From contig NZ_JBATHS010000028.1 in NCBI RefSeq assembly GCF_049667165.1, positions 20,591 to 84,590 of the forward strand: a stretch of 64,000 nucleotides of DNA, in the 5' to 3' direction. Origin of the DNA: Maribacter sp. (GTDB lineage: Bacteria; Bacteroidota; Bacteroidia; Flavobacteriales; Flavobacteriaceae). Positions 1 to 57,237 of the stretch are shown here, one piece after another. Positions within the stretch are counted from its first letter, which is position 1; every line of letters starts with the position of its first letter. The notes beneath the pieces are model-generated. The model worked only from the letters and a program-made list of their open reading frames with translations. It had not been told where the DNA came from and searched no databases. The translations under genes were made by a program, and so were the position numbers.

Positions 1-12
1 AACAGGCTTTTG

Positions 13-918
13 TCATGACACTAATTCTTTTGCTTTTCGAAACGTTGCCCGCAACAACCTCAGGTTCATTTGCGCCCCAAATGCGATAATTTCGCAATTC
101 CCTGTGAAATCCTTGAGGGGAATAATCTCATAATTGCCAAAGGTTAAATGGAAAAGGCGGTATTCGTTCCCAGCGACCCTGACGAAACCCTTTGCGCGTA
201 TACTTATTTTGCCCAGTTCCTGTAAAAAGGTCTCTAAACTTTCTAGGGGAATAATATCAGTGGTTCTATACACGGCAGTTTTAATGTCTTCGGGACGTGT
301 GTCCTCCATCGCACCTTCAGGAATTGAAGTTACTTGCATCAATTGTGTGGAATTGATTTTGCAGAATACATGCTTCTCAATGAGCGCGAACGGATTTATT
401 TCTTTTATAGATTGGATGACTTTTGCGGTTTTGGATGCATCGACCAAATCTATTTTGTTCAATATAATTTTATCAGCAACCCTGATTTGATGTTTTGCAC
501 GTTGCACAAAGGCAGCACTTTTATCAAAATTCAAGGCGTCTACAACGCACCATGCTCCGGCATATCGCACCTTGTTACTGATGCTATCATTATTCAACAA
601 TTCGCAGATAGAAATCGGGTCAGAAAGACCGGAGGCCTCTAAGTAAATTACCTCGGGATCGTACTGATCCAATAAGGTCGATAGGTTCTCTATGAAATTG
701 CCCAACAAGCAAACGCAAAAAACAGAGCCATTGTTGATCTCGACCAATTTGAAATCCTGGTTTTCAATTTTAAGCTCTTTTCCATCAACACCGGTAGGGG
801 CGAACTCATTTTGAATGACCGCAATTCTTTTATTCTTGTGTAAGTTCAATAGCTTTTTAAGCAGTGTGGTTTTTCCACTGCCTAAAAATCCACTGATAAG
901 AATTAAATCTGCGATCAT
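13..918 (-). CDS. COG0523/CobW-family G3E P-loop GTPase (putative metallochaperone)
   Basis: 301-aa ORF with Walker A GFLGSGKTTLL at the N-terminus and a CobW/YjiA-like overall layout. The usual CxCC metal motif is degenerate (NGSVFCVCLL). It overlaps the upstream gene by 4 bp (915-918), which suggests an operon. Confidence 0.75.
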   Translation of the reverse strand: MIADLILISGFLGSGKTTLLKKLLNLHKNKRIAVIQNEFAPTGVDGKELKIENQDFKLVEINNGSVFCVCLLGNFIENLSTLLDQYDPEVIYLEASGLSDPISICELLNNDSISNKVRYAGAWCVVDALNFDKSAAFVQRAKHQIRVADKIILNKIDLVDASKTAKVIQSIKEINPFALIEKHVFCKINSTQLMQVTSIPEGAMEDTRPEDIKTAVYRTTDIIPLESLETFLQELGKISIRAKGFVRVAGNEYRLFHLTFGNYEIIPLKDFTGNCEIIAFGAQMNLRLLRATFRKAKELVS

Positions 919-2291
919 ACTTTGGCCAATTGCTTTCGGTCTAAATGTTTTTGGATTCGTGCGACCAATTCTGATTTCGGTGGGATAATCGAAATGAATT
1001 CAACTTCACCATCAATACAAATTGTAGGAAGATTTCTAACTCCAAGCGATAGCATCATTTGAATGCCTTCCTCATTTTTTATCTTATGTTCTTTATATTC
1101 AATATTGTTCGCATTAAAATCATCGACTGCAAGTTTAACGGCCTTCACCATATATTGGCAAGGAGCACAAGAGGCGGAATCCAATGTGATGATGTCTATT
1201 TTTACTTTATCCTTTTCAAAATAATTTTCCAAATCAAGAAGCTCAATATTCTTGGCTGTCTGTCCTTTTGCCCTCAGAACATCCTGTTGGTATGTATCAT
1301 GAACGATTTCTGCTATTGCCTCAAGATTTTCAACGGGCGTGGCCATGGGCAGATCACAACCAGGGGCCAGGATAAAGCCAGTATCCCCGCCGATGTCCAT
1401 ACACTCAATGGCTTCAAATTTCGATTCTTCTGGAGTTCCCATTAACAATACCGAAGTCAACTTCATATTACCACCGAAGCTAATCTTATAGTTCTCTGCG
1501 TGCTCTTTAACGAAATCAAGAGGAATATTTTCATCTATAGAAATATTGTCCGGCTTGCATTTACACATTGCTTCAATATTCTGGGAGGCGTTGCCGCAAA
1601 CAAAGAACGAGCTTAAGGCACCACTTTCTCTAATATGACCGAATAAATCGGTACAATACGGTGAAACGAATGTTTCAAAAGACATTGGGTCTATTTGACT
1701 TACCATGGGGTCGACAACTGCGATAACATCGCACCCTGCCTCGACATAGTAATCAGACATGGCCTTGCCCACTTTTGTTGCAAAGTCCATAACCTTTCCA
1801 ACATATTCGGGATCTTCGAATAATTTCATGAATATATCGGTGCCCAAAAGGTGCAATGCCAGGGTAAATGGGCCGGTAATCAAACCGTATAAAGCGATAT
1901 TCGGATGATTCTCCTTGATTTTTGTCGCGGCATTCATAACCGTGGCGATTCTCCCTTTGCACCGGCATGGAACTTTTAGGTCTTCCAGTTTCAGACTGCC
2001 ATCGGCAAGCGGATGGGAAACCACCGCAGGTGGATTATCTTGGGACCATTTGATATCACAGCCCAGAACCTCTGCTTCTATTTGAAGGTCGAAGGTCACT
2101 GGAATGCCATCGGGATTGTATTTTTTTATCGCTAATTCGGCCCCATTTACAATATGGTTTTCCGATTTAAAATATGTGGTGGCATCCAATCCCAACAATT
2201 CCCCTGCATGGGCACCTACAAAGGGTACCCAAGGAATACGGGCTACCTTTTGGCGTTTCATTGCCGCTTGAATAAGTTCTAACCCTTGCAT
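915..2291 (-). CDS. URO-D/MtaA-like methyltransferase fused to a C-terminal thioredoxin-like (CxxC) domain
   Basis: 458 aa. The N-terminal ~340 aa resemble the uroporphyrinogen-decarboxylase/methylcobamide methyltransferase family. The C-terminal ~90 aa resemble a small thioredoxin/glutaredoxin fold with SCAPCQ. At the position of the HxC zinc motif the sequence reads FVCG. Confidence 0.65.
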   Translation of the reverse strand: MQGLELIQAAMKRQKVARIPWVPFVGAHAGELLGLDATTYFKSENHIVNGAELAIKKYNPDGIPVTFDLQIEAEVLGCDIKWSQDNPPAVVSHPLADGSLKLEDLKVPCRCKGRIATVMNAATKIKENHPNIALYGLITGPFTLALHLLGTDIFMKLFEDPEYVGKVMDFATKVGKAMSDYYVEAGCDVIAVVDPMVSQIDPMSFETFVSPYCTDLFGHIRESGALSSFFVCGNASQNIEAMCKCKPDNISIDENIPLDFVKEHAENYKISFGGNMKLTSVLLMGTPEESKFEAIECMDIGGDTGFILAPGCDLPMATPVENLEAIAEIVHDTYQQDVLRAKGQTAKNIELLDLENYFEKDKVKIDIITLDSASCAPCQYMVKAVKLAVDDFNANNIEYKEHKIKNEEGIQMMLSLGVRNLPTICIDGEVEFISIIPPKSELVARIQKHLDRKQLAKV

Positions 2292-2962
2292 TATGCCGAT
2301 TTTTTTAGATTGTTCATAAACTCGACAACACCTTGGGGGTCTTGGGAGTAATTATCCGCGCCGATCTTATCACAGAAATCCTGTGTAATGGGTGCCCCTC
2401 CAATGGTCACTTTTTGATTTGGGAACTTCGTTTTTATTTCCTTCACGATGTTTTCCATACTTTGCATTGTTGTTGTCAGTAAGGAGGATAAGCCAATAAT
2501 GGCATCAGGAAATTCGTTGATGGTGTCAATGAATTTATTGGCAGGAACATCCGTGCCCAGGTCAATGACCTCATATCCATTACCTTCTACGATCATTGAT
2601 ACCAGATTTTTCCCGATATCATGTAAGTCACCGGCAACGGTGCCAATGATAAAAATTCCTTTTTTCTGTACGTTCCCTTTGGCAAAAATCGGTTTTAAAT
2701 GCATCATTGCCGTGCTCATCGCTTTTGCCGACATCAATACCTGAGGAACGAAAATCTTGTTTTCCCTAAATTTAACACCAACCTTCTCCATACCAACAAT
2801 CAATCCTTTGGCCAATATGTCATTTGCAGAAATGCCTTCATCCAAGGCTTGTTTGGTAAGTTCATCGGCCCCGTCTTGATCCTTCATGTTTGGAGGATAT
2901 GGGGAGGTTTTGTTTATTTTTCCGAATTCAATACAGTCAGAGATTTTTGCTAAAATTTCCAT
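2291..2962 (-). CDS. Corrinoid (cobalamin)-binding protein, MtaC/MtbC-like
   Basis: 223 aa. It carries the B12-binding DxHxxG motif (GDLHDIGKNLV), the SxL motif (GLSSLLTTT) and the GG motif (TIGGAPIT), preceded by a helical B12-binding_2-like cap. Confidence 0.85.
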   Translation of the reverse strand: MEILAKISDCIEFGKINKTSPYPPNMKDQDGADELTKQALDEGISANDILAKGLIVGMEKVGVKFRENKIFVPQVLMSAKAMSTAMMHLKPIFAKGNVQKKGIFIIGTVAGDLHDIGKNLVSMIVEGNGYEVIDLGTDVPANKFIDTINEFPDAIIGLSSLLTTTMQSMENIVKEIKTKFPNQKVTIGGAPITQDFCDKIGADNYSQDPQGVVEFMNNLKKSA

Positions 2963-2966
2963 GATA

Positions 2967-3986
2967 TTATACTGGTTTTAATTCTTTCAATTGGGATTGG
3001 GCCACCTCTATAAAGGCCAGGATGTTTTCTAGAGACGTATCACTTTCCACGGAATGGGAAGGGGAGAAAATATAGCCTCCTTTTCGGCCCATTTCCAAAA
3101 GCGCCAATGATTCCTTGGTTACATCTTCCTTGGTTCCAAAAGGCAAGGTCTTCTGCATGGACAAGCCTCCATGGAAACAAAGCTTACCTAGATATTCGGA
3201 GTGGATCTGATGTACATCCATCACCTCTGGTTGAAAAGGGTTAAAGCAGTTTAAACCTGCATCTATTAGGGATGGGAACAATTCATCGACGTCACCACAG
3301 GAATGGATCATCACATATTTGCCTGCATCCTTGACTCTTTTGTACATTCTTTTGATGTGGGGATATAAAAATTCATGCCAAAGATCGGCACCCATGATCA
3401 ATCCGTGTTGTTGCCCCCAATCATCCCCAAAATAAACGGCGTCGATGTCATATTCCAGGGCTTTGTCCACTTGGGCAATATTGTAATCCGCAATTTTGCC
3501 CAGTAATTCGTGTACAAAATCGGGATACATGAAAAAGTCCATTAACAGATTTTCCATGCCCCGCATAGACCAGGCCCTTTCATAAAGCGAAAACCCTATT
3601 TGAAAGACCCTGAACAAATCAGGCTTTTTTTCGATTTCTGACTCAATATTCGCAAAGAAGCGAGGGTCATGGGGATTAGGGAATTGAATTCCTTCCAAAG
3701 TGGGATCTTTTATAATGTCCTCAATGGGCATTCCGATATCCTTATCTATAGATCGATCCCATACCACATTAAAAACGTCTTTAAAATGGTCTTTCTTTAC
3801 TTCTTCAAAGAAGCCAATATCACTGCCTAGGTTTAGGATGTGATTTCCCAAGACGACATCGAGGTCATCTGTTTTGTAATACTCCTGAAGCATTTCCTTG
3901 GGTTCTTTGGTGAATTTAAAGGACCATGGAACATAGGGAGGTTTTTTATGTTCCAACACAGATTTGATGATTTCTCTTTTGGTCAT
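2967..3986 (-). CDS. URO-D/MtaA-like (putatively zinc-dependent) methyltransferase
   Basis: 339 aa in the URO-D family. It contains an HxCG motif (MIHSCGDV) like the zinc site of methylcobamide:thiol methyltransferases. It is the first gene of a tightly packed 4-gene minus-strand operon. Confidence 0.65.
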   Translation of the reverse strand: MTKREIIKSVLEHKKPPYVPWSFKFTKEPKEMLQEYYKTDDLDVVLGNHILNLGSDIGFFEEVKKDHFKDVFNVVWDRSIDKDIGMPIEDIIKDPTLEGIQFPNPHDPRFFANIESEIEKKPDLFRVFQIGFSLYERAWSMRGMENLLMDFFMYPDFVHELLGKIADYNIAQVDKALEYDIDAVYFGDDWGQQHGLIMGADLWHEFLYPHIKRMYKRVKDAGKYVMIHSCGDVDELFPSLIDAGLNCFNPFQPEVMDVHQIHSEYLGKLCFHGGLSMQKTLPFGTKEDVTKESLALLEMGRKGGYIFSPSHSVESDTSLENILAFIEVAQSQLKELKPV

Positions 3987-4033
3987 GACAACACATTTTA
4001 TATTGTCATTAAAAGTAAATCAATTAGCAGGCA

Positions 4034-4117
4034 ATTTCTACGTTGATTTTAGCCAAATAATACCTTATTTTGACATGATATTTATCATATAATCAATATA
4101 AATGGCATAATAAATCA
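4034..4117 (+). promoter_or_regulatory. 84-bp conserved intergenic element, copy A (paralog of 7629-7712)
   Basis: An ungapped manual alignment to 7629-7712 gives 67/84 identical positions (49/58 in the first 58 bp). It contains direct repeats TACGTTGATTTTA and TACCTTATTTTGA whose starts are 22 bp apart. Confidence 0.5.
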
Positions 4118-4147
4118 TTTTTTTACTACTAGGTTTATGATGAAATC

Positions 4148-5188
4148 CTATTGTTTGGAATAATGAATATCTGACAAAGCTTTAATGGTATTTGCCGCCT
4201 GTTCCGCTGTGATGTCCCTTTGGGGGTTTGCGAACATCTCATAGCCTACCATAAACTTTTTAACGGTTGCCGACCGCAATAATGGTGGATAAAAAGACAT
4301 GTGAAAATGCCACTCAGGATGTGCTTCTCCGTCTGTGGGTGCCTGATGGATTCCCGCGGAATACGGAAACGAAGTTTGAAAGACATTGTCCAGTCGTATG
4401 GTAGTTTTTCGCAGGATATCGGCAAATGCCTTTTTCCCTGCATCGGAAAGTTCACCGATATGGGCCATCTTTCTCTTTGGAACGATCATGGTTTCATAAG
4501 GCCACACCGCCCAATAGGGAATTAAGGATACAAAATGTTCGTTTTCTAGAATAATGCGTTCGTCCATTTCCATTTCCTGCTTCACATAATCTTCTAAAAT
4601 ACTTGCTTTGTGAGCTTTCCAGTAGGTCGATAACCGATCGCATTTCTTTTGAACTTCCTGGGGGATACTCCGTTGCGCCCATATTTGTCCATGGGGGTGC
4701 GGATTACTACAACCCATGACATCGCCCTTGTTCTCAAAAATCTGAACATGGTTTATTCCATCAATAGCGCCCAGTTCCTTATATTCCTGCTGCCATAATG
4801 AAATTACATCGGTGATTTCTTCTGTGGACATTAAAGGCAGCGTTAGGGAGTGATCTGGCGAAAAACAAACTACTTTACAGATACCGGATTCGGATTCGGC
4901 ATAAAGCAAACCATTTTCATATTTATCTTCCTTTACATCCTTAAGGAGTGCTGAAAAATCATTCACAAATGAAAAAGGCTTTTTATAATCGGGATTTACC
5001 GCACCGCCCATTCTGCCATTGGTAGGACACAAATAGCAGTTTGGATCATACTTTGGCTTGGTTTCCAAAGCAGGTTTTTCGGTCTTGCCTTGCCATGGTC
5101 GTTTCGTTCTGTGGGGCGATACCAAGATCCATTCCCCTGTTAAAATATTAAACCTTCTATGCGGATTTTCGTTGAATTCAGTGCTCAT
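4148..5188 (-). CDS. galT: Galactose-1-phosphate uridylyltransferase
   Basis: 346 aa with the active-site HPH motif (CSNPHPHGQIW) and a CYLCP zinc-type motif. galK sits immediately upstream. Confidence 0.9.
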   Translation of the reverse strand: MSTEFNENPHRRFNILTGEWILVSPHRTKRPWQGKTEKPALETKPKYDPNCYLCPTNGRMGGAVNPDYKKPFSFVNDFSALLKDVKEDKYENGLLYAESESGICKVVCFSPDHSLTLPLMSTEEITDVISLWQQEYKELGAIDGINHVQIFENKGDVMGCSNPHPHGQIWAQRSIPQEVQKKCDRLSTYWKAHKASILEDYVKQEMEMDERIILENEHFVSLIPYWAVWPYETMIVPKRKMAHIGELSDAGKKAFADILRKTTIRLDNVFQTSFPYSAGIHQAPTDGEAHPEWHFHMSFYPPLLRSATVKKFMVGYEMFANPQRDITAEQAANTIKALSDIHYSKQ

Positions 5189-5189
5189 A

Positions 5190-6323
5190 TTATTTTTTTA
5201 GGATCGACGTTCCTTGGCTAGGGCTGGCTTCAAACCAAGTTAATTTAAGGTTATATGCTTTCTCATAGGCTTTTGATGCCGCAGCTACAAATTCTTCAAT
5301 GGCATCTTCGTGTACTAAATTTATGGTACAACCACCAAATCCACCGCCCATCATCCGTGCCCCCAAGACCGCATCATTACCTTTTGTAAACGCTACCAGA
5401 AAATCCAATTCAGGACAACTTACCTCATACATTTTGCTCAATCCTTCATGGGTTTCATACAATAATTCGCCAACTCTCTTGAGATTATTGGCCTTAAGGG
5501 CCTCAACAGCCTCTAAAACCCTGGTTTTCTCCTGTATGACATAGGCACAACGATTGTAGACCGTTTCGTCGATGGTATCCTTTACCTCATTCAACATGTC
5601 CATATTGGCATTACGCAACGATTTTACTTCAGGATAGATCTTCTGAAGTGCGCTAACCCCTGTTTCACACTGGGCCCTTCTTTTGTTATATTCCCCGGAC
5701 GCAAGATTGTGCGAAACATTGGTGTTCAAGAGTACGATCTTGTATGGTTTTATGTGTATAGGGATATAGGAATATTCCAGTGACTCACAATCCAATAGAA
5801 TGACATGCCCCTTCTTGCTCATGACGGAGGCAAATTGGTCCATGATACCACATTTGGTGCCCGCATAGGTATGCTCAGCAGCTTGTGATAGCTTTACGAT
5901 ATCCATTTTGCTCAATCCCAAATCGAACATTTCATTTAAACCAAAAGCCAACCCGCATTCCAATGCGGCCGAAGAACTCACTCCAGAACCAATAGGCACA
6001 TGACTTTCAAGTACGCAGTCAAAACCTCTGAGTTTATCTGTCCTTTTTGATATTTCATTCAAAACACCCAAAATGTAGTTTTCCCATTCAACCTTACTTA
6101 TTTCAATGGTATCCAAAGACAATTCGAACCCGGTGTCATAACCCTTACTGTAGACATGGCAGATTTTATCCGATCCATTTTTTTGAAACTTGAACGTTAT
6201 CTTCTTTTCTATGGCCGTAGGCAGTACATATCCCATATTATAATCGGTGTGTTCCCCGATTATATTTATTCTACCTGGGGATTCAACAGTAAGTTCTGGT
6301 TTGAAATTGTCTAAAAATCGCAT
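5190..6323 (-). CDS. galK: Galactokinase
   Basis: 377 aa with the galactokinase signature GRINIIGEHTDYN and the GHMP kinase motif PIGSGVSSSAALE. Confidence 0.9.
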   Translation of the reverse strand: MRFLDNFKPELTVESPGRINIIGEHTDYNMGYVLPTAIEKKITFKFQKNGSDKICHVYSKGYDTGFELSLDTIEISKVEWENYILGVLNEISKRTDKLRGFDCVLESHVPIGSGVSSSAALECGLAFGLNEMFDLGLSKMDIVKLSQAAEHTYAGTKCGIMDQFASVMSKKGHVILLDCESLEYSYIPIHIKPYKIVLLNTNVSHNLASGEYNKRRAQCETGVSALQKIYPEVKSLRNANMDMLNEVKDTIDETVYNRCAYVIQEKTRVLEAVEALKANNLKRVGELLYETHEGLSKMYEVSCPELDFLVAFTKGNDAVLGARMMGGGFGGCTINLVHEDAIEEFVAAASKAYEKAYNLKLTWFEASPSQGTSILKK

Positions 6324-6332
6324 ATTTCTATA

Positions 6333-7487
6333 TTATTTGTTTTTCATATTCCTGACCATGGCAACAGAGGCAACAGTTCTAAAGCCCAAGTGTTCCAATG
6401 AAGAATCCACACTTGTGGCCATTCTTGAGGAAACCCGATAACTTGCACAATAGGATGCATTGCACAAGAATGAGCCCCCTTTCATTATTTTTTCCTTGGC
6501 ATAAGGTTCCCGAACATTATAGGGGGTAGCCGCTCCTTTGGGGTTTACCGATACTACATGCGCCATGGAAACCTCAAGGTAATGATCTGTTCTATACCAG
6601 TCATTGGTCCATTCCCAAACATTTCCTGCCATGTCATACAAGCCAAAATCATTGGGAGGGTAGGTTTTTACGGGGGCCCGCCGTTCAAAACCATCAACCT
6701 GTGTATTATTTACCGGAAATTCCCCTTCCCAACTATTCGCCATTTGTGACAATGCTGAAGCCTCATCACCCCAAAAATAGATATTTCCCTTCTTATTACC
6801 ATGCGCTGCCCTTTCCCATTCTGCTTCAGTGGGCAATCGTTTGCCTGCCCATTCGCAATAGGCCAAGGCATCTTCGTATGCAATATGGACAACGGGATGG
6901 TTATCCTTGCCCTTTACGTTTGAATCTGGGCCATTAGGGTGTTTCCAATTGGCACCTATGGTCCAATCCCACCATTGTGAGAAATCATATAGATTGGGTA
7001 CGGGGCTCTTGGTTTTTTTAAAGGTCAAAGATCCAGGTTGCAAGATAGAATCATGGGGTTTGGGAGTGCCTTCCGGGACTTGCTTCTTAAGTTCCTCCCA
7101 ATCGATCTTTCTTTCGGCCACGGTAATGTATCCCGTTGCATCAACAAACCTTTTAAATTGGGCATTTGTTACCTCGGTAATATCCATAAAGAAACCATCA
7201 ACTGCAGCCTTATGTGCAGGTTTTTCATGGGGCATGGCCATTTTATCCTCTGGGATGGCACCCTGCATGAATTCGCCTCCGGGAATCCAAACCATATCTT
7301 CCGGGGTGTTCAGGTCGACTGGTTTTTGAATGATCAATTTGGATAGGTCGGCAACTATAATGGTATCTGAAACTTCTTCGGAATTTTCTTTTTGTTCTAG
7401 GGTTGGTTTTTTATCGCCACATTGGATTAAGGTAAACACCGTTACTATTACAATGAAAATTTTGGATATTTGAAATGCATATTTCAT
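6333..7487 (-). CDS. Formylglycine-generating enzyme (FGE/SUMF1-type sulfatase maturase), lipoprotein
   Basis: 384 aa with a lipobox-like signal (FTLIQC). FGE-family motifs are present: RLPTEAEWE, NVWEWTNDWY and the paired active-site Cys in GGSFLCNASYCASYR. Confidence 0.85.
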   Translation of the reverse strand: MKYAFQISKIFIVIVTVFTLIQCGDKKPTLEQKENSEEVSDTIIVADLSKLIIQKPVDLNTPEDMVWIPGGEFMQGAIPEDKMAMPHEKPAHKAAVDGFFMDITEVTNAQFKRFVDATGYITVAERKIDWEELKKQVPEGTPKPHDSILQPGSLTFKKTKSPVPNLYDFSQWWDWTIGANWKHPNGPDSNVKGKDNHPVVHIAYEDALAYCEWAGKRLPTEAEWERAAHGNKKGNIYFWGDEASALSQMANSWEGEFPVNNTQVDGFERRAPVKTYPPNDFGLYDMAGNVWEWTNDWYRTDHYLEVSMAHVVSVNPKGAATPYNVREPYAKEKIMKGGSFLCNASYCASYRVSSRMATSVDSSLEHLGFRTVASVAMVRNMKNK

Positions 7488-7628
7488 TAAGTGAGTGAAG
7501 GGTGTTTAAACTTTGGATTGAAACGAATGCTTAAAAGAAAGGAATATAATTTAATCCGCCATGGGTTGCTCTGAATTTGTTGATTACCTCGAATGAATAA
7601 AAAATAAAGGTAGTAACACGGAAAAGGT

Positions 7629-7712
7629 ATTTCTACCTTGATTTTAACCAACTTATACCTTATTTTGACATTTTATTTGTCATTTTTACAACAAAAGAGG
7701 TATAATAAATAA
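7629..7712 (+). promoter_or_regulatory. 84-bp conserved intergenic element, copy B (paralog of 4034-4117); candidate araC promoter/operator
   Basis: 80% identical to copy A. TTG (7638-7640) and TATTTTG (7661-7667) are spaced about 20 nt apart, which resembles a Bacteroidota -33/-7 promoter facing araC. Direct repeats TACCTTGATTTTA and TACCTTATTTTGA start 22 bp apart. Confidence 0.5.
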
Positions 7713-7736
7713 GGTTAAACCAAAAATAGTCTTGTC

Positions 7737-8600
7737 TTGAAAGCACAGTATGAAAAAATAACCGGGTCTGGGGAGAGTTCTTTCAATGCCTTCGTTTATG
7801 AAAATGAAAATTTTGATGCACCTTGGCATTTTCATGCTGAATATGAACTTACTTATATAGAAAAAGGGAAAGGGATACGATATGTTGGTAATAGCGTTGA
7901 AAAATTTGAAGAGGGAGACCTTGTACTTTTAGGTTCGAACTTACCGCATTGTTGGAAAAATTCTCCCCAGAACACTACTCAGGTCAAATCTTTGGTTTTT
8001 CAATGGGATGACCATCTTTTAGGTTCGGATTGGCTGTTAAGAAATGAATTCAAAACGATAAGGGCAGTATTGAACAAGGCTTCGGAGGGTATTAAATTCA
8101 ATGAAAAGTACGCCCAAGGCATATCTGAAAAATTAAAGGAGATTATGGATTTCCCACCTTTTACAAAACTTATTGGTTTTCTACAATTATTGGAGGAGTT
8201 AAGTACTACCCATGAAATGGAAACGCTTACCACTTCTGGTTTTTTACCTAATTTGAATCGGATAACGAACAAAAGAATAGACAAGGTTTATGATTTTGTT
8301 CAAAACAATTACGATAAGAAGATCAAGCTTACCGATGTTTCCTCATTGGTTTCTATGGGTGATGAGGCTTTTTGTCGATTCTTCAAAAAGGCCTTTAACA
8401 AATCGTTTTTCACCTTTATAAATGAATATCGTATTAATCTGGCGTGCAAGATGTTAATCGAAACAAACATGCAGATCAGTCAAATTGCCTATTCCTGTGG
8501 GTATGAAAGTCTACCTTTCTTTTATAGACAGTTCAAAAAGTTCATGGGCTGTTCCCCTTTGGTCTATCAAAAAAAATATGTTCGGGCCTTTTCAAAATAG
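7737..8600 (+). CDS. AraC/XylS-family transcriptional regulator (cupin sensor plus dual HTH)
   Basis: 287 aa with an N-terminal cupin-like region (WHFHAEYELTYIEKG) and a C-terminal AraC HTH (ISQIAYSCGYESLPFFYRQFKKFMGCSP). There is no in-frame ATG near the N-terminus, so the start is the TTG at 7737 used by the ORF track. Confidence 0.85.
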   Translation: MKAQYEKITGSGESSFNAFVYENENFDAPWHFHAEYELTYIEKGKGIRYVGNSVEKFEEGDLVLLGSNLPHCWKNSPQNTTQVKSLVFQWDDHLLGSDWLLRNEFKTIRAVLNKASEGIKFNEKYAQGISEKLKEIMDFPPFTKLIGFLQLLEELSTTHEMETLTTSGFLPNLNRITNKRIDKVYDFVQNNYDKKIKLTDVSSLVSMGDEAFCRFFKKAFNKSFFTFINEYRINLACKMLIETNMQISQIAYSCGYESLPFFYRQFKKFMGCSPLVYQKKYVRAFSK

Positions 8601-8656
8601 AAATGGTTTTCCATGGCCTTAAATGTAAATCATTATATAATTTTTTGGAATAACCA

Positions 8657-8694
8657 TTTGTTGCACTTATTTATACGTGCGTAGTTTAGCTTTG
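8657..8694 (+). promoter_or_regulatory. Candidate Bacteroidota-type promoter for the fucose operon
   Basis: A perfect -7 consensus TAnnTTTG (TAGCTTTG, 8687-8694) lies 44 nt upstream of the GH29 ATG. TTTG/TTG occurs at 8657-8663 as a possible -33 element. This is a motif match only. Confidence 0.35.
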
Positions 8695-8737
8695 GTCAAA
8701 AAAATCTGATTTTAGCGGGACATTTTAAAGAGAAGTC

Positions 8738-10297
8738 ATGTCTATTAGAATTCATCAGCTCCTACTACTTGCCATCCTTACCTTTTTTTTATCTTGCAAA
8801 TCGGATCAAAATAAGACAGAACCCGGTGTAGCGGTTACAGGTTCGGAATTGAAATTTGAACCCAACTGGGAGTCCATCAAAAAAAACTATAAAGATCCCG
8901 AATGGTTCAACAATGCCAAATTTGGGATTTTCATTCATTGGGGGGTTTATTCGGTCCCGGCATTTGGTTCTGAATGGTATCCACGCCAGATGTACATGGA
9001 TACAGCCACCTTTACGGCCCAACTTGATTTGGAAAGTAAAGGCCCTAATGCCACTTTTCTTCATCATAAAGAAAAATGGGGCGATCAAAAAGAGTTTGGG
9101 TATAAGGATTTTGTTCCTATGTTCAAAGCTGAAAAGTTCAGTGCCAAGGAATGGATATCTCTGTTCAAAAAATCGGGCGCCAAATATGTGATCCCCGTTG
9201 CCGATCATCATGATGGCTTTGCTATGTATAAATCGAATACCACACGATGGAATGCGGTCAATATGGGACCCAAAAGAGATGTGCTGGGAGAACTTTTTAA
9301 AGAGGGTCGGGAACAAGGTCTGATCATGGGGGCTTCCTCTCATTATGCATTTAACTGGTCGTTCTACAACAAAAAGGAGCATTTCGATACTGTAGATCCT
9401 GAGTATGCCGATTTGTATTCTCCAAAAGGAAAGGATGTAACCGAGCCTGTATCCGAGGAATTTAAAAAGTTATGGTGGGACCGCACTGTAGATTTGATTG
9501 ACAATTACCAACCCGATATACTTTGGTTTGATTTTTATTTGGATATTCCCGATTTCGCAGATGTTCGACCTAAAATTGCGGCTTACTATTATAATAAGGG
9601 AATCGAGTGGGGAAAAGAAGTGGTCATTAATGACAAGAATTTTGACCATGAGGCTTTTCCGGAAGGAACGGTAATTTATGACCTGGAACGTGGAAAACTT
9701 CCCGGAATTCGAAAATTGCCTTGGCAAACAGACACCTCAATAGGTAAAAATTCTTGGTCCCATGTAGCTAACTGGGAGTCAAAAACAACCAATAGTCTTA
9801 TTGATGATTTAGTAGATATTGTTTCAAAAAACGGAAATCTATTACTAAACATAGGCCCCAAAGCCGATGGCACAATACCTGAAGATCAAAAGCAGATTTT
9901 AATGCAAATTGGCGATTGGTTGGCCTTGAATGGCGAAGCTATTTATGATACCAAATACTGGAAGACATATGGAGAAGGGCCAACAGAAGTCAAAAAAGGC
10001 CATCATTCAGAAGGACAAAACAAGGGTTTTACCGGACAGGACATCCGCTTTACCCAAAAAGGGGATAAATTATATGCAATTCTGTTAGAATGGCCAGATA
10101 ATGGTTTGGTAAACATAAAGTCTTTATCGAGTATAAGTGAGTATGCAAAGGATTTGAAAATTAAAAATGTACATCTTTTGGGCGGTAAGGAAAACATAAA
10201 ATTTACCCGATCAGAGAGTGGATTATCCATTGAGGATTTGGGGGAAAAGTCAGGGGATTTTGCCCATGTTTTTGAAATAACATTGGGTACGCCTTAA
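8738..10297 (+). CDS. GH29 alpha-L-fucosidase, lipoprotein
   Basis: 519 aa with a lipobox (FFLSC). It has the GH29 N-terminal signature KFGIFIHWGVYSVPAFGSEWY, the ADHHDGF motif, and the C-terminal YGEGPTE plus beta-sandwich region. Confidence 0.9.
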   Translation: MSIRIHQLLLLAILTFFLSCKSDQNKTEPGVAVTGSELKFEPNWESIKKNYKDPEWFNNAKFGIFIHWGVYSVPAFGSEWYPRQMYMDTATFTAQLDLESKGPNATFLHHKEKWGDQKEFGYKDFVPMFKAEKFSAKEWISLFKKSGAKYVIPVADHHDGFAMYKSNTTRWNAVNMGPKRDVLGELFKEGREQGLIMGASSHYAFNWSFYNKKEHFDTVDPEYADLYSPKGKDVTEPVSEEFKKLWWDRTVDLIDNYQPDILWFDFYLDIPDFADVRPKIAAYYYNKGIEWGKEVVINDKNFDHEAFPEGTVIYDLERGKLPGIRKLPWQTDTSIGKNSWSHVANWESKTTNSLIDDLVDIVSKNGNLLLNIGPKADGTIPEDQKQILMQIGDWLALNGEAIYDTKYWKTYGEGPTEVKKGHHSEGQNKGFTGQDIRFTQKGDKLYAILLEWPDNGLVNIKSLSSISEYAKDLKIKNVHLLGGKENIKFTRSESGLSIEDLGEKSGDFAHVFEITLGTP

Positions 10298-10329
10298 GAT
10301 AGTGATGTGAGTTAGCTTTCAATAATTTA

Positions 10330-10360
10330 AGAGCGCACCGTAAGGGTGCGTTCTTTAAAT
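10330..10360 (+). terminator. Rho-independent-type hairpin after the first GH29 gene
   Basis: AGAGCGCACC-GTAAG-GGTGCGTTCT forms a 10-bp stem (one G-T pair) with a 5-nt loop, followed by TTAAAT. It lies 33 nt downstream of the stop. Confidence 0.5.
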
Positions 10361-10377
10361 ATCAATTTTAATGTACA

Positions 10378-11391
10378 ATGAAATATATTGTTTGTGAAAA
10401 GCCCGGTGAATTTATCCTAAAGGAGAAAGATGAACCAAAAAAAGTGCCTGGAGAAGCCATTTTGAAAATAAAAAAAGTAGGTATTTGTGGCACCGACTTA
10501 CATGCCTATGCCGGCAATCAAGCCTTCTTTGAATATCCTAGGATCTTAGGTCATGAACTGGCCTCCGAGGTTTTGGAGATCGAGGAAAATGATAAGGGAA
10601 TCAGGCCAGGGGACAACGTGGTTGTTATGCCCTATGTCAATTGCAATTCATGTATTGCCTGTAGAAACGGGAAGACGAATTGTTGTACGAAAATGAGGGT
10701 TTTGGGGGTACATACCGATGGTGGTATGCAAGAGAAGATATCGGTTCCGATCAGTCTTTTGATCCGCACTCCCGATTTGAACGATAATGCTATGGCTATA
10801 GTGGAACCCCTTGCCATCGGGGCCCATGCCATACGAAGGGCACAATTACAACCCGGTGAAACCATTGTTGTAGTAGGTTGTGGCCCTATAGGTATTGGTA
10901 TCATGAAATTGGCTCAAATTGCAGGGGCAAAGGTCATCGCTTTGGATGTGAACCAAGGAAGGCTTCAGTATGCCAAGGAAAAAATCGGGGTTGATCATAT
11001 CGTTTTGGGCGGGGAAGGTTCGGTAGATAAAGTGCGTCAGATTACCAATAATGACCTGGCCACGGCGGTCTTTGATGCGTCGGGCCATAAAGGGGCGTTG
11101 GAATTTGGGCATAACTATATGTCCCATGGGGGTCGATATGTTTTGGTTGGGCTCTCTAAAGGGGAAATTGTGTTTGCACACCCTGCCATCCATGCCAAGG
11201 AAACTACCTTGATGTGTAGCCGAAATGCCACTTTGGAGGATTTTGAACACGTCATTTCCGTTCTGAAGGATGGGAATTTCCCCATCGATTCCTTCATCAC
11301 CCATACCGTCGATCTCGATGAGATGATCAGTAATTTTGATGGTTGGTTGGACCCAGCCAATGGTGTGATCAAAGCGATGGTCAATTTTTAA
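10378..11391 (+). CDS. Zinc-dependent medium-chain alcohol/sugar dehydrogenase
   Basis: 337 aa with the MDR motifs GICGTDLH and GHE, a structural-zinc Cys cluster (CNSCIACRNGKTNCC) and a Rossmann motif VVGCGPIG. Confidence 0.8.
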   Translation: MKYIVCEKPGEFILKEKDEPKKVPGEAILKIKKVGICGTDLHAYAGNQAFFEYPRILGHELASEVLEIEENDKGIRPGDNVVVMPYVNCNSCIACRNGKTNCCTKMRVLGVHTDGGMQEKISVPISLLIRTPDLNDNAMAIVEPLAIGAHAIRRAQLQPGETIVVVGCGPIGIGIMKLAQIAGAKVIALDVNQGRLQYAKEKIGVDHIVLGGEGSVDKVRQITNNDLATAVFDASGHKGALEFGHNYMSHGGRYVLVGLSKGEIVFAHPAIHAKETTLMCSRNATLEDFEHVISVLKDGNFPIDSFITHTVDLDEMISNFDGWLDPANGVIKAMVNF

Positions 11392-11415
11392 AATGAGTTC
11401 AATAATAAAGGTTCA

Positions 11416-12957: not shown

Positions 12958-12961
12958 CGAA

Positions 12962-13792
12962 ATGACAATCGATGCCCATCAACACTTTTGGCACTACAAT
13001 CCTGTAAAACATAGCTGGATAGATAATGCAATGGCTGTGATTAGAAAGGATTTTTTGCCATCAGACTTAAAAAAGGTTTTTGAAGAAAATGATATTGACG
13101 GTTGCGTGGCCGTACAAGCGGATCAAACGCTACAGGAGACTTATTTTTTGTTGGATCTGGCCAAGTCGAATGACTTTATTAAAGGAATCGTAGGTTGGGT
13201 GGATTTGCGCGATAAAGGAATTGGTCCTGTTTTGGAAAAATATGGCGAACAAAAGAAAATAAAGGGATTTCGACATATTGTTCAAGGGGAAGCGGATCAT
13301 AATTTTTTGTTACGACCTGATTTTATGAGGGGTATATCCCATTTGGAAAAGTATGGATACACCTATGATATCTTGATTTTCCCGCACCAATTGGGCGCTA
13401 CCCTTGAATTCGTAAAGCGGTTTCCAAATCAGCGATTTGTTATAGACCATATGGGCAAACCTTATATTAAGGATGGTTTCTTTGATGGATGGGCCATTTT
13501 GATGAAAGAAATTGCCAAGCACGAAAATGTTTATTGTAAATTATCGGGCATGATTACTGAGGCCGATTTCAATTCATGGACCCCCGAGCAGATCATTCCG
13601 TATATGAATGTGGTTTTAGAGGTATTTGGCCCGGATAGGCTTATGTACGGCTCGGATTGGCCGGTATGTCTCGTAGCTGGGAATTATGCCCGTGTAAAGC
13701 AATTAGTAATTAATTTTATTACAGATCTAAGCACAACAGAACAGCAAAAGATTATGGGCGGCAATGCCATAAATTTTTATAATCTAAAGTAA
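12962..13792 (+). CDS. Amidohydrolase_2-family lactonase (L-fucono-1,5-lactonase-like)
   Basis: 276 aa with the N-terminal metal motif IDAHQHFW typical of this lactonase group. The assignment is also supported by its position between a fucosidase, an SDR and fucP. Confidence 0.7.
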   Translation: MTIDAHQHFWHYNPVKHSWIDNAMAVIRKDFLPSDLKKVFEENDIDGCVAVQADQTLQETYFLLDLAKSNDFIKGIVGWVDLRDKGIGPVLEKYGEQKKIKGFRHIVQGEADHNFLLRPDFMRGISHLEKYGYTYDILIFPHQLGATLEFVKRFPNQRFVIDHMGKPYIKDGFFDGWAILMKEIAKHENVYCKLSGMITEADFNSWTPEQIIPYMNVVLEVFGPDRLMYGSDWPVCLVAGNYARVKQLVINFITDLSTTEQQKIMGGNAINFYNLK

Positions 13793-13798
13793 AGCGCA

Positions 13799-14590: not shown

Positions 14591-14655
14591 GATAAACCTA
14601 TCAGATATAAAACCCAATGGGTCTGCTCATCGAAATCAACTAAACAACCAAATGC

Positions 14656-37084: not shown

Positions 37085-37094
37085 CCGTATTATT

Positions 37095-55300: not shown

Positions 55301-55303
55301 ACA

Positions 55304-57220: not shown

Positions 57221-57237
57221 GCCGTTGCTATTTGTAC

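Follow-up and report, generated by a model that had tools for sequence, protein, structure and literature searches.

Organization of the locus

The window, that is, the whole stretch of 64,000 nucleotides of the Maribacter sp. contig that was analysed, opens at the edge of a minus-strand gene cassette embedded in a glycan locus. The relevant features are the following.

1-16, minus strand: first 16 nt of a MetH activation-domain-like gene (234 aa), the remainder lying beyond the window
13-918, minus strand: COG0523/CobW-family GTPase (cobW domain, E 7e-40)
915-2291, minus strand: MTtrx, 458 aa (URO-D, E 7e-55, and Thioredoxin_3, E 8e-6)
2291-2962, minus strand: corrinoid (B12) carrier protein, 223 aa (B12-binding_2 and B12-binding)
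2967-3986, minus strand: MT339, 339 aa (Pfam URO-D, E 8.5e-27)
3987-4147, minus strand: AT-rich spacer of 161 nt between galT and the cassette
4148-5188, minus strand: galT (Pfam GalP_UDP_transf, E 4e-66)
5190-6323, minus strand: galK (GHMP kinase and GalKase_gal_bdg)
6333-7487, minus strand: formylglycine-generating enzyme, FGE (FGE-sulfatase, E 8e-79)
7737-8600, plus strand: AraC-family regulator (Pfam cupin and HTH), divergent from the operon
19255-20532, minus strand: GH117-family enzyme (PDB 4U6D, E 2e-229; 3P2N, E 1e-63)
22169-23464, minus strand: GH16 beta-porphyranase homologue (PDB 4AWD, E 1e-45; 3JUU; 4ATE)
23606-24889: second copy of a GH117-family enzyme (weak GH43 Pfam match)

The four cassette genes (13-3986), described in an earlier note from the sequence alone, are real, intact and closely packed, and their domains are confirmed by Pfam. 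From the MT339 gene onwards, the first two genes are separated by 4 nt and the next pairs overlap by 1 nt and 4 nt, and the cobW stop overlaps by 4 nt with the fifth cassette gene, the MetH activation-domain-like one. Two methyltransferases, a corrinoid carrier and accessory proteins make up the anatomy of corrinoid methyl transfer, as had been recognized. The FGE gene opens a co-directional gene string in which galK and galT lie directly upstream of the cassette. No terminator-like hairpin is found in the spacer at 3987-4147, and this spacer may contain an internal promoter.

The surrounding genes are of the porphyran/agar type. The presence of GH16 and GH117 enzymes is confirmed by solved structures (4AWD/3JUU and 4U6D/3P2N, respectively), and it is only by such comparison that they could be assigned: Pfam alone overlooked GH16 and gives weak GH43 matches on both GH117 copies. 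3P2N is a 3,6-anhydro-alpha-L-galactosidase. GH29 (three copies) and GH2, also noticed before, are indeed present, together with GH3 and at least nine sulfatases. The GH16 homologue shows porphyran, the source of 6-O-methyl-galactose (G6Me), to be the predicted target of the locus. The placement of galK and galT is peculiar to this Maribacter genome, with galT occurring in none and galK in one of 80 related loci.

The cassette has a conserved regulator, the AraC protein encoded at 7737-8600. It shares 58-67% identity with the AraC genes that lie directly next to the MT339 gene, in divergent orientation, in five other loci (L002-L006), and 24-38% with MT339-adjacent AraC genes in many further loci.

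The operon beyond the window

The suspicion that the operon continues past position 1 is borne out by the source contig, on which a MetH activation-domain gene is followed by P450 system genes. The fifth cassette gene (L001, 2311-3015, 234 aa) matches Pfam Met_synt_B12 (E 2.5e-9) and PDB 1J6R (E 7e-10), its R-Y-S-P-G-Y aligning with R-I-S-P-G-Y of the latter; SPGY and a C-terminal Cx2Cx4C are conserved in an alignment of 25 sequences. A reductive activase of the RamA type or a pterin-binding methyltransferase, for which this region was to be inspected, is absent from the contig beyond position 1, and a MetH-type reactivation domain is found instead.

About 210 bp past the fifth gene and on the same strand follow, in order, genes for a P450, a ferredoxin, a ferredoxin reductase, a Zn-ADH, a GH2, an esterase and a second GH2. 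The P450 is of the CYP236A type and matches 6G5O (E 1e-197), the ADH matches 8H2A (E 5e-195), and by these matches the set of P450, ferredoxin, reductase and ADH is the characterized G6Me system. The earlier statement that there is no P450 thus holds within the window, but not for the contig. In Zobellia, the P450 was shown to be essential for growth on G6Me (Brott et al., PMC10033563).

Mutual exclusivity of the cassette with the P450 demethylase had been envisaged. Here both are in one operon, and the pairing recurs in Lutibacter, Mariniflexile, a Saprospiraceae MAG and an Akkermansiaceae MAG. Exclusivity therefore fails: rather than replacing the P450, the cassette partners it or serves as its conditional alternative. 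Starting from the P450, the link is weak: of approximately 14 CYP236A-like metagenome loci whose upstream flank is long enough, none has the cassette. This counts against a role of the cassette in sugar demethylation, as does the fact that no folate-binding methyltransferase, methyl acceptor or methyl-disposal route is encoded nearby.

Components of the cassette

The carrier protein contains B12-binding_2 and B12-binding domains (E 3e-19 and 3e-22) with the motifs D-x-H-x-x-G (GDLHDIG, conserved), S-x-L and GG. It scores 179.7 bits against TIGR02370; the nearest named models, MtgC/MtbC, remain under cut-off, and the top PDB matches are 1Y80 (E 6e-46) and MttC 7XCN.

In MTtrx the URO-D match is full-length, PDB MtaA 4AY7 is matched (E 2e-27), and Foldseek gives TM 0.89 over the target. 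The HxCG zinc motif noticed earlier is present in the first URO-D enzyme, MT339, but not in the second: MTtrx carries an invariant Phe (F230; F-V-C232-G) at the position of the His, while C232 and C312 are kept. Its thioredoxin-like domain contains C375-A-P-C378, of which both cysteines are invariant in 30 homologues. MTtrx is proposed to act as methyltransferase II, transferring the methyl group from methyl-Co(III) to an acceptor. The GTPase has YjiA (1NIJ) as its top PDB match, with a metal motif G-S-V-F-C-V-C in place of the G-C-I-C-C of YjiA. Among the related loci compared, the cobW gene is confined to those with the MTtrx type, and its product is probably a metal chaperone for MTtrx.

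MT339 is only distantly related to MtaA. The Pfam URO-D match spans the C-terminal half only, all NCBIfam MtaA/CmuA models score well under cut-off, and identity with MtaA amounts to 15% (profile E 0.018). Nevertheless, the fold of its AF2 model (pLDDT 88.8) is nearer to MtaA than to UroD, with MtaA 4AY7 as top match (TM 0.73). H228 and C230 (I-H228-S-C230-G) and H311 align with the His/Cys/Cys zinc ligands of MtaA and are invariant in 75 orthologues. Thiol and selenol methyltransferases have a His-Cys-Cys metal site, from which the resulting site of MT339 differs. The zinc site of protein farnesyltransferase, Asp/Cys/His, activates thiols, and by analogy a His/Cys/His site could equally do so, which counts against an assignment of MT339 as methyltransferase I. 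O-demethylases, for their part, have been reported with a metal site departing from the thiol/selenol-type His-Cys-Cys (PMC10418091). MT339 shares this departure, and on this ground, together with its diversified family and the sugar-transporter surroundings of its paralogues (see below), it is proposed to be the substrate-specific methyltransferase I, which would transfer the methyl group of a methyl ether to the Co(I)-corrinoid.

Distribution and gene neighbourhoods of MT339

MT339 sequences from Flavobacteriia, gut Bacteroidales, Saprospiraceae, Verrucomicrobia, Kiritimatiellales and Planctomycetota share 63-92% identity, and the MT339 family is diversified (502 clusters at 50% identity, with a threshold of E <= 1e-30). 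MT339 is found in anaerobes feeding on algal or plant glycans (Rikenellaceae MAGs, Alistipes MAGs, Bacteroides intestinalis). The distribution is sporadic and tracks glycan degraders, not housekeeping needs, and MT339 is kept in carbohydrate loci of several phyla, including those of strict anaerobes unable to use P450.

In 33 of the 41 well-covered loci, defined by at least four genes on each side, MT339 neighbours AraC, sugar transporters, glycoside hydrolases, sulfatases or SusC/D. It is often abutted by GH2, and the transporters include gluP glucose/galactose MFS (above cut-off), sugar-porter MFS and SSS proteins. Of these 41 loci, 17 have a corrinoid protein, 17 a reactivation domain and 15 a second methyltransferase. 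RACo/RamA-type activases adjoin the cassette in L019, L029 and L082. Three unrelated oxygenase types adjoin MT339: P450 (L003-L007, L041), PhyH-like 2OG dioxygenase (L002, L018) and a MocDE-like fusion of FA-desaturase and Rieske domains (L056, L063, L065, L072), the Rieske domain resembling MocE.

About 59% of the well-covered loci thus have no corrinoid protein within about five genes, which counts against the sugar demethylase reading: there, MT339 must use partners encoded elsewhere or work differently. Partners elsewhere are seen in one genome only, that of Labilibaculum sp. DW002, in which one contig has MT339-GH2-corrinoid protein and another corrinoid protein-MTtrx-CobW-reactivation-RACo, beside an MT339 paralogue and RhaT. 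It is conceivable, though very improbable, that MT339 is a non-corrinoid enzyme, such as a sugar-modifying enzyme that depends on zinc or a URO-D-fold decarboxylase, next to which the corrinoid genes of some genomes form an unrelated module. The lack of a nearby corrinoid protein in most loci, the partial Pfam match and the distant relationship with MtaA would agree with this. However, the invariant H-x-C-G motif is that of the methyltransferase branch and the nearest fold is MtaA, and the Labilibaculum MT339 is flanked by a corrinoid protein of its own. Moreover, several phyla contribute to a set of at least 25 loci in which MT339 directly adjoins the genes for the corrinoid protein, the reactivation domain and the second methyltransferase, often with overlapping frames.

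This second methyltransferase is of three kinds, namely MtaA-like with His-Cys-Cys, MTtrx with CobW, and MtaB. The last is full-length; in L007 its gene is placed between those for MT339 and the corrinoid protein, and a second MtaB adjoins them in L047. In the MtaB/MtaC/MtaA trio the URO-D enzyme is methyltransferase II; the roles of MT339 and its partner may therefore be reversed. MT339 would then receive the methyl group from the corrinoid protein and hand it on to a single conserved acceptor, such as homocysteine or another thiol, while MTtrx, the His-Cys-Cys URO-D enzyme or MtaB would take the methyl group from methanol, methylthiols or a methyl sugar; in the extreme, this would be a donor-flexible, MetH-like methionine/thiol methylation system. 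A universal acceptor would be in line with MT339 being the constant, highly conserved component. The B12 and reactivation domains are borrowed from methionine synthase, and the H-x-C...E...(H) spacing of MT339 also occurs in MetE and MtaA. Yet stand-alone AraC-MT339-sugar-transporter modules fit poorly with an acceptor-side enzyme, and numerous MT339-like paralogues each adjoin a different sugar transporter (RhaT in L082, sugar porters in L033 and L051). Thiol-type Cys ligands are on the partners, MT339 lacking the full set, and a search for Met-/SAM-type regulation and a riboswitch found neither. With the link to glycan degraders also speaking against a housekeeping role, we consider such a reversal unlikely.

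The substrate is a separate matter. MT339 is approximately 73% identical between marine Flavobacteriia and gut Bacteroides with GH115, GH127, GH43 and GH51 loci, and the substrate common to both may therefore not be G6Me, which also counts against the sugar demethylase reading as specified for G6Me. The same corrinoid mechanism could act on a non-sugar methylated compound accompanying algal or plant biomass, candidates being methoxylated aromatics, phenolic glycosides, methanol released from methyl esters, and methylthiols derived from DMSP. Every characterized methyltransferase I of the URO-D type has an aryl methyl ether, chloromethane or a methylthiol as its substrate (PMC8630106, PMC10418091), the ADHs of the P450 cluster prefer aromatic aldehydes in vitro (PMC10033563), and MtaB, a methanol enzyme, is a partner in two loci. 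No aromatic-catabolism genes occur in MT339 neighbourhoods, however, which consist of genes for sugar transporters, mutarotase and GH2 as well as galK and galT. The conserved AraC/cupin regulator is of the sugar type, and the neighbouring P450 has a methyl sugar as its specific substrate (structure 6G5O/6G5Q). A non-sugar substrate is therefore rather improbable.

Proposed mechanism and comparison with the P450 system

On the basis of gene context, we give about an even chance to the cassette being an O-demethylase that depends on a corrinoid but not on O2 and acts on methyl sugars derived from glycans, porphyran-derived G6Me being the most likely substrate here. Recurring in sugar-degradation loci of marine and gut bacteria, it is a strong candidate for an O2-independent route of sugar demethylation. 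Anaerobic demethylation of G6Me was called "a mechanism to be discovered" in 2025 (PMC12316285), and no description of such a corrinoid sugar demethylase was found in the literature searched.

All steps of the mechanism are deduced from homology and context. The zinc site of MT339 (His228, Cys230, His311 and probably Glu254) would bind the methyl sugar, the methyl carbon of which would be attacked by Co(I) of the corrinoid protein, giving free sugar and methyl-Co(III); freed galactose could enter the pathway of GalK and GalT encoded just upstream. MTtrx would transfer the methyl group to an acceptor, most likely a thiol, and regenerate Co(I), its metal site being loaded or maintained by the COG0523 GTPase. 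The MetH activation-domain protein would rescue oxidized Co(II) in the manner of methionine synthase, methylating it reductively with S-adenosylmethionine, and this would fit an oxygen-exposed host. The AraC regulator would activate the entire string, from FGE, galK and galT through the cassette to the P450 system. In this scheme, one and the same step would be served by either of two systems according to conditions: the P450 system is O2-dependent and B12-independent and releases formaldehyde, whereas the cassette would depend on B12, but not on O2, and would proceed without the release of formaldehyde.

Organization of the cassette

Gene calls and Pfam searches confirm the four tightly packed minus-strand genes described in the earlier note, and the supposition that the operon continues past position 1 of the window also holds. 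The exact CobW protein is located on a public 15.7-kb contig (L001), which carries the operon onward through a fifth cassette gene and then a cytochrome P450 system. Within the window, 4 nt lie between the first two genes, and the next two junctions are overlaps of 1 nt and 4 nt.

Genes of the cassette, in order of transcription
2967-3986, minus strand: MT339, 339 aa, proposed substrate-specific methyltransferase I; Pfam URO-D on the C-terminal half (E 8.5e-27), motif I-H-S-C-G
2291-2962, minus strand: corrinoid protein, 223 aa, B12 carrier; B12-binding_2 and B12-binding (PF02607 + PF02310), with DxHxxG, SxL and GG
915-2291, minus strand: MTtrx, 458 aa, MtaA-like enzyme and proposed methyltransferase II; full-length URO-D (E 7e-55) plus Thioredoxin_3, motif CAPC
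13-918, minus strand: CobW, 301 aa, cobW/COG0523 GTPase (domain E 7e-40)
L001 2311-3015: reactivation protein, 234 aa, methionine-synthase activation domain; 4-nt overlap with the cobW stop

Upstream of the cassette and on the same strand lie galT, galK and a gene for a formylglycine-generating enzyme (FGE). The spacer between galT and the cassette measures 161 nt and holds no recognisable terminator. A promoter and terminator scan of positions 1-8800, made with a sigma-70 model and not one of Bacteroidota promoters, gave counts close to those of shuffled sequence and no terminator in this gap.

On L001 the reactivation protein gene is followed, after 210 nt, by genes for a P450, a 2Fe-2S ferredoxin, a ferredoxin reductase, a zinc alcohol dehydrogenase (ADH), a GH2 enzyme, an esterase and a second GH2. 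The P450 matches the Zobellia P450 acting on 6-O-methyl-D-galactose (G6Me; 6G5O/6G5Q) over its full length (E 1e-197), and the ADH matches FoADH/ZoADH (8H2A/8H2B, E 5e-195). With Fer2 and Pyr_redox_2 genes between P450 and ADH, the neighbour genes have the make-up of a CYP236A cluster, and by homology the set is the characterised oxidative G6Me demethylation cluster. Growth of Zobellia on G6Me depends on the P450 as well as on the ADH (PMC10033563). The premise that the cassette replaces a missing P450 is thus wrong, and the suggested mutual exclusivity has to be abandoned as well, since both systems occur in one operon-like string, here and in related loci. Cobalamin and other riboswitches, considered as a switch between P450 and cassette, gave no match at gathering score in the window and seven related loci.

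The surrounding locus

Judged from its gene content, the window is a locus of the porphyran/agar type. The GH16 and GH117 enzymes of the earlier note are present, as a GH16 beta-porphyranase homologue (22169-23464, 431 aa, GTG start; matches to 4AWD, E 1e-45, and to 3JUU, 4ATE and 3ILF) and two GH117-family genes (4U6D, E 2e-229). The window also holds three GH29, two GH3, two GH2, at least nine sulfatases and one hybrid two-component regulator. The ORF at 22169-23464 has no Pfam match even at E 1, so that Pfam alone under-calls GH16 in this locus.

The three GH29 genes lie at 8738-15999 and 20581-22134 with a block of Zn-ADH, amidohydrolase, SDR and MFS transporter genes. This arrangement looks like non-phosphorylative L-fucose catabolism and, being situated in a porphyran locus, may serve L-galactose instead; the substrate of BpGH29 is L-galactose in porphyran oligosaccharides (PMC12316285). 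Among the sulfatases there are two paralogous two-gene modules, both on the minus strand (34173-37114 and 54182-57289), each made up of a PF12831 FAD-dependent oxidoreductase (608 and 661 aa, 35% identical) and a 372-aa protein. The 372-aa proteins are 32% identical to each other, and their sole domain signal is a faint FMN_bind match. A GH28-like ORF of 311 aa (18306-19241) covers profile positions 94-317 only, and the roughly 450 nt before it are non-coding; the gene may have been truncated, or its start called wrongly.

A proposed methyltransferase with a divergent metal site

MT339 belongs to a large family. Among 8,000 scored candidates, 7,924 are related to it at E <= 1e-5, and the wider MT339-like family forms 502 clusters at 50% identity (E <= 1e-30). 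Both URO-D proteins of the cassette were scored against MtaA and MtbA models, the HMM placement that the earlier note had proposed, and all scores remained under the cut-off. MT339 reaches at best 78.6 bits against the curated MtaA/MtbA/CmuA families, where the cut-off is 244, and is a member of none; against NCBIfam NF040654 and NF041608 it scores 53.8 (cut-off 400) and 35.0 (cut-off 600), and MTtrx 156.5 and 142.9, likewise below cut-off.

A single-sequence search of MT339 against PDB sequences gave no match, and its alignment to MtaA needed a profile. The AlphaFold model (28 homologues, pLDDT 88.8) has as its best structural match the methylcobalamin:CoM methyltransferase MtaA (4AY7/4AY8, TM 0.72-0.73), which ranks above uroporphyrinogen decarboxylases and MetE. 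In the profile alignment, H228 and C230 fall on the His and the first Cys zinc ligand of MtaA, and H311 on the Cys that is the third ligand; the ligand identities are those of the MtaA structure, with the numbering offset checked. MT339 is thus a His-x-Cys...His protein and lacks the His-x-Cys...Cys ligands of the MtaA type. All three residues are invariant in 75 orthologues. Among 105 more distant family members H228 is still invariant, 91 have Cys and 14 have Asp at position 230, and E254 and D316 are mostly retained. In this superfamily, enzymes that methylate thiols and selenols have His-Cys-Cys sites, while in O-demethylases one or both Cys are replaced (Kountz and Balskus, PMC10418091). 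It is therefore suggestive that the predicted metal site of MT339 follows the O-demethylase pattern.

Carrier, second methyltransferase and accessory proteins

The corrinoid protein possesses the helical cap, the Rossmann B12 domain and the DxHxxG motif that mark the carrier of corrinoid three-component systems. It is closest to Moorella 1Y80 (E 6e-46) and to MttC, its GDLHDIG motif is conserved in 26 homologues, and it scores 179.7 bits with TIGR02370, under the cut-off of 215.3.

MTtrx is a clear MtaA homologue (4AY7, E 2e-27; TM 0.89 over the target). Both Cys ligands are kept (C232, C312), and the His ligand is replaced by an invariant Phe, giving Phe-x-Cys...Cys. The CxxC of its thioredoxin domain (C375, C378) is invariant in 30 homologues, and this domain weakly matches the NCBIfam HUIPC-motif thioredoxin-like (seleno)protein. 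About 30 similar MTtrx homologues of 539 aa, together with P0170, carry a second thioredoxin-fold-like C-terminal extension of some 85 residues.

CobW has a P-loop (GFLGSGKTT) and a shifted metal motif, S-V-F-C-V-C as compared with C-I-C-C in YjiA and the canonical CxCC of COG0523; it weakly matches an NCBIfam CobW-related selenoprotein. This type of CobW is found only together with MTtrx, the methyltransferase devoid of the His zinc ligand.

The earlier note had looked to the sequence beyond position 1 for a reductive activase or a pterin-binding methyltransferase. Neither is encoded there, and a MetH-type reactivation protein is present instead: no ATP-dependent reductive activase (RamA/RACE/RACo) occurs in the window or on L001, and neither the cassette nor the adjoining 10 kb past position 1 encodes a PF00809-type protein. 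The reactivation protein matches Pfam Met_synt_B12 and Thermotoga 1J6R (E 7e-10), where R-Y-S-P-G-Y aligns to R-I-S-P-G-Y; R-x-x-x-G-Y is presumably the SAM-binding motif of MetH. No NCBIfam model matches it at E <= 1e-5. This protein (L001 2311-3015) and 24 homologues in related loci share a conserved C-terminal C-x2-C-x4-C motif, through which electrons could enter if it holds a metal or an iron-sulfur cluster.

Distribution and modular composition

For the locus survey, one genome per species was scanned, ORFs were called in all loci and clustered, and large clusters were annotated. The survey returned 80 MT339 loci with 63-92% identity. They occur in Flavobacteriia (Namhaeicola, Mariniflexile, Lutibacter), in gut and rumen Bacteroidales (Bacteroides intestinalis, Alistipes, Odoribacter, Rikenellaceae MAGs), and also in Marinilabiliales, Saprospiraceae, Verrucomicrobia, Kiritimatiellales (Pontiella), Planctomycetota and the gammaproteobacterium Neiella. 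A housekeeping role of the cassette was rejected on account of this sporadic distribution and the glycan-locus context.

Forms of the cassette
Form A: MT339, corrinoid protein, MTtrx, CobW, MetH-like reactivation protein; Flavobacteriia, Neiella, some Rikenellaceae
Form B: MT339, corrinoid protein, reactivation protein, His-x-Cys...Cys MtaA-like enzyme; Bacteroides, Alistipes, relatives
Form C: MT339, MtaB, corrinoid protein, reactivation protein; Saprospiraceae (L007)

The pairing of two URO-D-fold enzymes flanking a carrier, seen in the window, recurs in at least 22 related loci. Form B is usually followed by a GH127 gene and a gluP-type glucose/galactose transporter gene, with GH115, GH43 and GH51 nearby. 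Full-length MtaB (PF12176, E 6e-162) is encoded by two Bacteroidota, a Saprospiraceae MAG (L007, 11053-12429) and Bacteroidia MS502-39 (L047, 12498-13850). In the former it is situated between the MT339 orthologue and the corrinoid protein. The enzyme might work backwards, with methanol as the product, or supply the same carrier with methyl groups derived from methanol. It could also be that the donor and acceptor roles of the two methyltransferases are reversed, and form C does imitate the MtaB/MtaC/MtaA arrangement.

In 41 loci MT339 is flanked by four or more genes in both directions, and for these its neighbours were counted to a distance of about five genes. Carbohydrate-type neighbours (AraC regulator, sugar transporter, glycoside hydrolase or sulfatase, SusC/D) are present in 33 of the 41, a corrinoid protein and a reactivation protein in 17 each, and a partner methyltransferase in 15; many MT339 loci have no corrinoid genes nearby. 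Labilibaculum sp. DW002 divides the genes over two contigs. The first carries AraC, MT339, GH2 and a corrinoid protein; the second carries corrinoid protein, MTtrx, CobW, reactivation protein and RACo, beside an MT339-like paralogue, RhaT and AraC. Other MT339-like paralogues (H-x-C/D...H) adjoin sugar porters and a mutarotase (L033, L051, L062, L066, L073). The layout of the MT339-like family is similar to that in acetogens, where many substrate-specific methyltransferase I paralogues share carriers and activators, and such sharing, verified in only one genome, offers an explanation for stand-alone MT339 genes accompanied by a regulator and a transporter. A RACo/RamA-type ATP-dependent activase abuts the cassette in L019, L029 and L082. 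In the last of these, from Labilibaculum, the MetH-type SAM-dependent domain and the RACo-type ATP-dependent activase stand side by side after corrinoid protein, MTtrx and CobW.

The AraC gene of the window (7737-8600) is orthologous (58-67% identity) to the AraC gene that is immediately divergent from MT339 in L002-L006, and therefore FGE, galK and galT have been inserted between regulator and cassette in this genome. This insertion is absent from the other 80 loci, galT being found in none and galK in one. Such a placement of FGE, galK and galT suggests that galactose is the product. A methyl sugar other than G6Me could also be the substrate: MT339 is about 73% identical in gut loci that resemble plant arabinogalactan/xylan loci with GH115, and there 4-O-methyl-glucuronate is the obvious methylated sugar.

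Association with oxygenases

CYP236A-type P450 systems stand beside MT339 in L003-L007 and on the contig of the window, and an Akkermansiaceae MAG (L041) has a 45%-identical P450 in that position. Among metagenome loci, L112 (Ga0307966_1001363) encodes a P450 that shares only 46% identity with the G6Me P450, and some 8 kb upstream of it lie MTtrx-like (47%) and CobW-like genes. With L041 it makes up another, more distant clade of P450s that is linked to the cassette. An obligate linkage of cassette and P450 was considered and rejected, most P450 loci having no cassette; it is absent from all of the approximately 14 CYP236A-like metagenome loci with enough upstream flank.

A PhyH-like 2-oxoglutarate/Fe(II) dioxygenase follows the cassette or MT339 in Namhaeicola litoreus (L002, 14806-15696) and in a Bacteroides MAG (L018, 6693-7580). 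Its weak best match is methylphosphonate hydroxylase, and in Namhaeicola it holds the position of the P450 system. In Kiritimatiellales, including Pontiella sulfatireligans, a fusion of a fatty-acid-desaturase-type di-iron domain and a Rieske domain is encoded right after MT339 (L056, L063 at 11186-12610, L065 and L072), with a PocR-domain AraC regulator upstream. The Rieske domain is similar to MocE-family ferredoxins (67 bits, under the cut-off), and the fusion resembles the MocDE oxygenase of rhizopine catabolism. According to work attributed to Bahar et al. (1998), MocDE reportedly carries out the O-demethylation of 3-O-methyl-scyllo-inosamine. The mocDEF genes serve the catabolism of this rhizopine (PMC3538637). 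That three unrelated oxygenases stand beside MT339 is most simply explained if all would act on the same kind of bond.

Proposed mechanism and significance

In the proposed mechanism, the zinc site of MT339 would polarise the sugar-O-CH3 bond, the Co(I) of the carrier would take the methyl group, and the galactose set free would be phosphorylated by GalK. A chemical precedent is MtaB, which cleaves the aliphatic C-O bond of methanol with the help of zinc. MTtrx or its equivalents would pass the methyl group of methyl-Co(III) to a thiol, or MtaB, in reverse, would discharge it to water and yield methanol. By the energetics of the Mta system, a thiol accepts the methyl group of an O-methyl donor exergonically and the MtaB half-reaction is near equilibrium, so that it could proceed in the direction of methanol where methanol is scarce. 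Genes for a methyl-disposal pathway are absent from the vicinity of the cassette. The MetH-like protein would repair oxidised Co(II) with SAM, and CobW may serve the unusual metal site of MTtrx. The host encodes FGE and a P450 and is therefore an aerobe; to such a host the cassette would be useful at low oxygen, when B12 is available, or as a means to avoid formaldehyde. For anaerobic relatives it would be the only demethylation route.

Taken together, these elements suggest a widespread, previously undescribed O2-independent system that strips methyl ethers from sugars, a reading to which, as a whole, we give slightly less than an even chance. In it, diversified MT339-like zinc enzymes, each devoted to one O-methyl sugar, would pass the methyl group to a B12 protein. 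The group would leave as a methylthiol or, with MtaB, as methanol, amounting to a net B12-mediated hydrolysis of the methyl ether. In aerobes the system would be a conditional isozyme of the P450, 2OG-dioxygenase-like and MocDE-like demethylases, by analogy with MetE and MetH or with class I and II ribonucleotide reductases. In gut and sediment anaerobes it would be the sole route, tying the digestion of methylated glycans from algae and plants to the supply of B12.

A methyl ether keeps a sugar from being catabolised, and the only known route for its removal needs oxygen. G6Me can account for as much as 28% of porphyran (PMC10033563). A gut porphyran paper of 2025 states that the route used by anaerobes such as gut Bacteroides is unknown; in its words, the demethylation of G6Me by anaerobes is 'a mechanism to be discovered' (PMC12316285). 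In line with the earlier note, full-text searches of the literature under Creative Commons licences turned up neither this cassette nor any corrinoid-dependent demethylase of carbohydrates, and the papers on the P450/ADH cluster do not mention it. If the reading is true, a B12 route would close the gap for anaerobes and extend corrinoid O-demethylation from aromatic to carbohydrate methyl ethers. It would also be a new B12-dependent function in human-gut and marine Bacteroidota, with effects on B12 cross-feeding, predict new sources of methanol or methylthiol during glycan degradation, and provide biotechnology with a formaldehyde-free demethylase for seaweed and hemicellulose sugars. The cassette genes are defined precisely enough to turn the open question into direct assays.

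Comparison with known systems

The O-demethylases of anaerobes (MtvABC of Moorella, OdmABCD/Vdm of Acetobacterium, MtoABCD of Methermicoccus) follow the same logic as the cassette. They share with it (PMC8630106, PMC10418091) a methyltransferase I of the URO-D superfamily, a small corrinoid carrier, a second methyltransferase and a reactivation factor, as well as many methyltransferase I paralogues and a metal site departing from His-Cys-Cys. However, their substrates are aryl methyl ethers with a phenolate leaving group, whereas the context of the cassette indicates alkyl (sugar) methyl ethers. Their methyltransferase II is pterin-binding and makes methyl-H4folate or methyl-H4MPT, while that of the cassette is MtaA-like, or MtaB. 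Their activator is the ATP-dependent RACE/RamA, in contrast to a MetH-type SAM-dependent domain with RACo only in some relatives, and their hosts are acetogens and methanogens instead of glycan-degrading Bacteroidota and PVC bacteria, aerobes included.

With MtaABC of Methanosarcina the cassette has in common an MtaA homologue (MTtrx), a carrier similar to MtaC/MttC and, in L007 and L047, MtaB, of which there is none in the window. The zinc-assisted cleavage of an aliphatic methyl-oxygen bond by MtaABC is a chemical precedent for a sugar methyl ether. The cassette differs in its thioredoxin fusion, its COG0523 partner and the Phe of MTtrx in place of the MtaA His. The bacteria that carry it are not known to make coenzyme M.

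The CYP236A G6Me demethylase system, reportedly described by Reisky 2018 and Robb 2018 with structures 6G5O/6G5Q, presumably has the same task as the cassette, that is, freeing an algal sugar of its methyl ether for central metabolism. The P450 hydroxylates the methyl group with O2, NAD(P)H and ferredoxin and formaldehyde is released, whereas the cassette would perform a nucleophilic methyl transfer that requires neither O2 nor reducing equivalents at each turnover. MetH has a cap and B12-binding module and an activation domain homologous to those of the cassette, and both use a modular logic of donor barrel, carrier, acceptor barrel and reactivation. In the cassette, however, each module is a protein of its own, and two URO-D barrels stand in for the homocysteine (PF02574) and pterin (PF00809) barrels, which are absent.

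The type 1 mlp clusters (Kountz & Balskus 2023, PMC10418091) likewise combine several MtaA-like URO-D proteins with a corrinoid protein, have no folate methyltransferase and occur outside methanogens; in the text consulted, the HUIPC-motif thioredoxin-like and CobW-related selenoprotein families are not named. The clusters are described there as restricted to obligate anaerobes, with Ram/RACE, His-Cys-Cys sites and sulfur or selenium gene neighbours. The cassette, in contrast, has an aerobic host (FGE, P450), an anchor enzyme that is not His-Cys-Cys, and carbohydrate neighbours. Membership in type 1 mlp, whose Mlp2 and Mlp3 have His-Cys-Cys sites, was rejected on the metal sites, the absence of RACE and the O2-dependent host enzymes. 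The system seems to work like the three-component O-demethylases and MtaABC, yet on the tests of membership it falls outside each named family.
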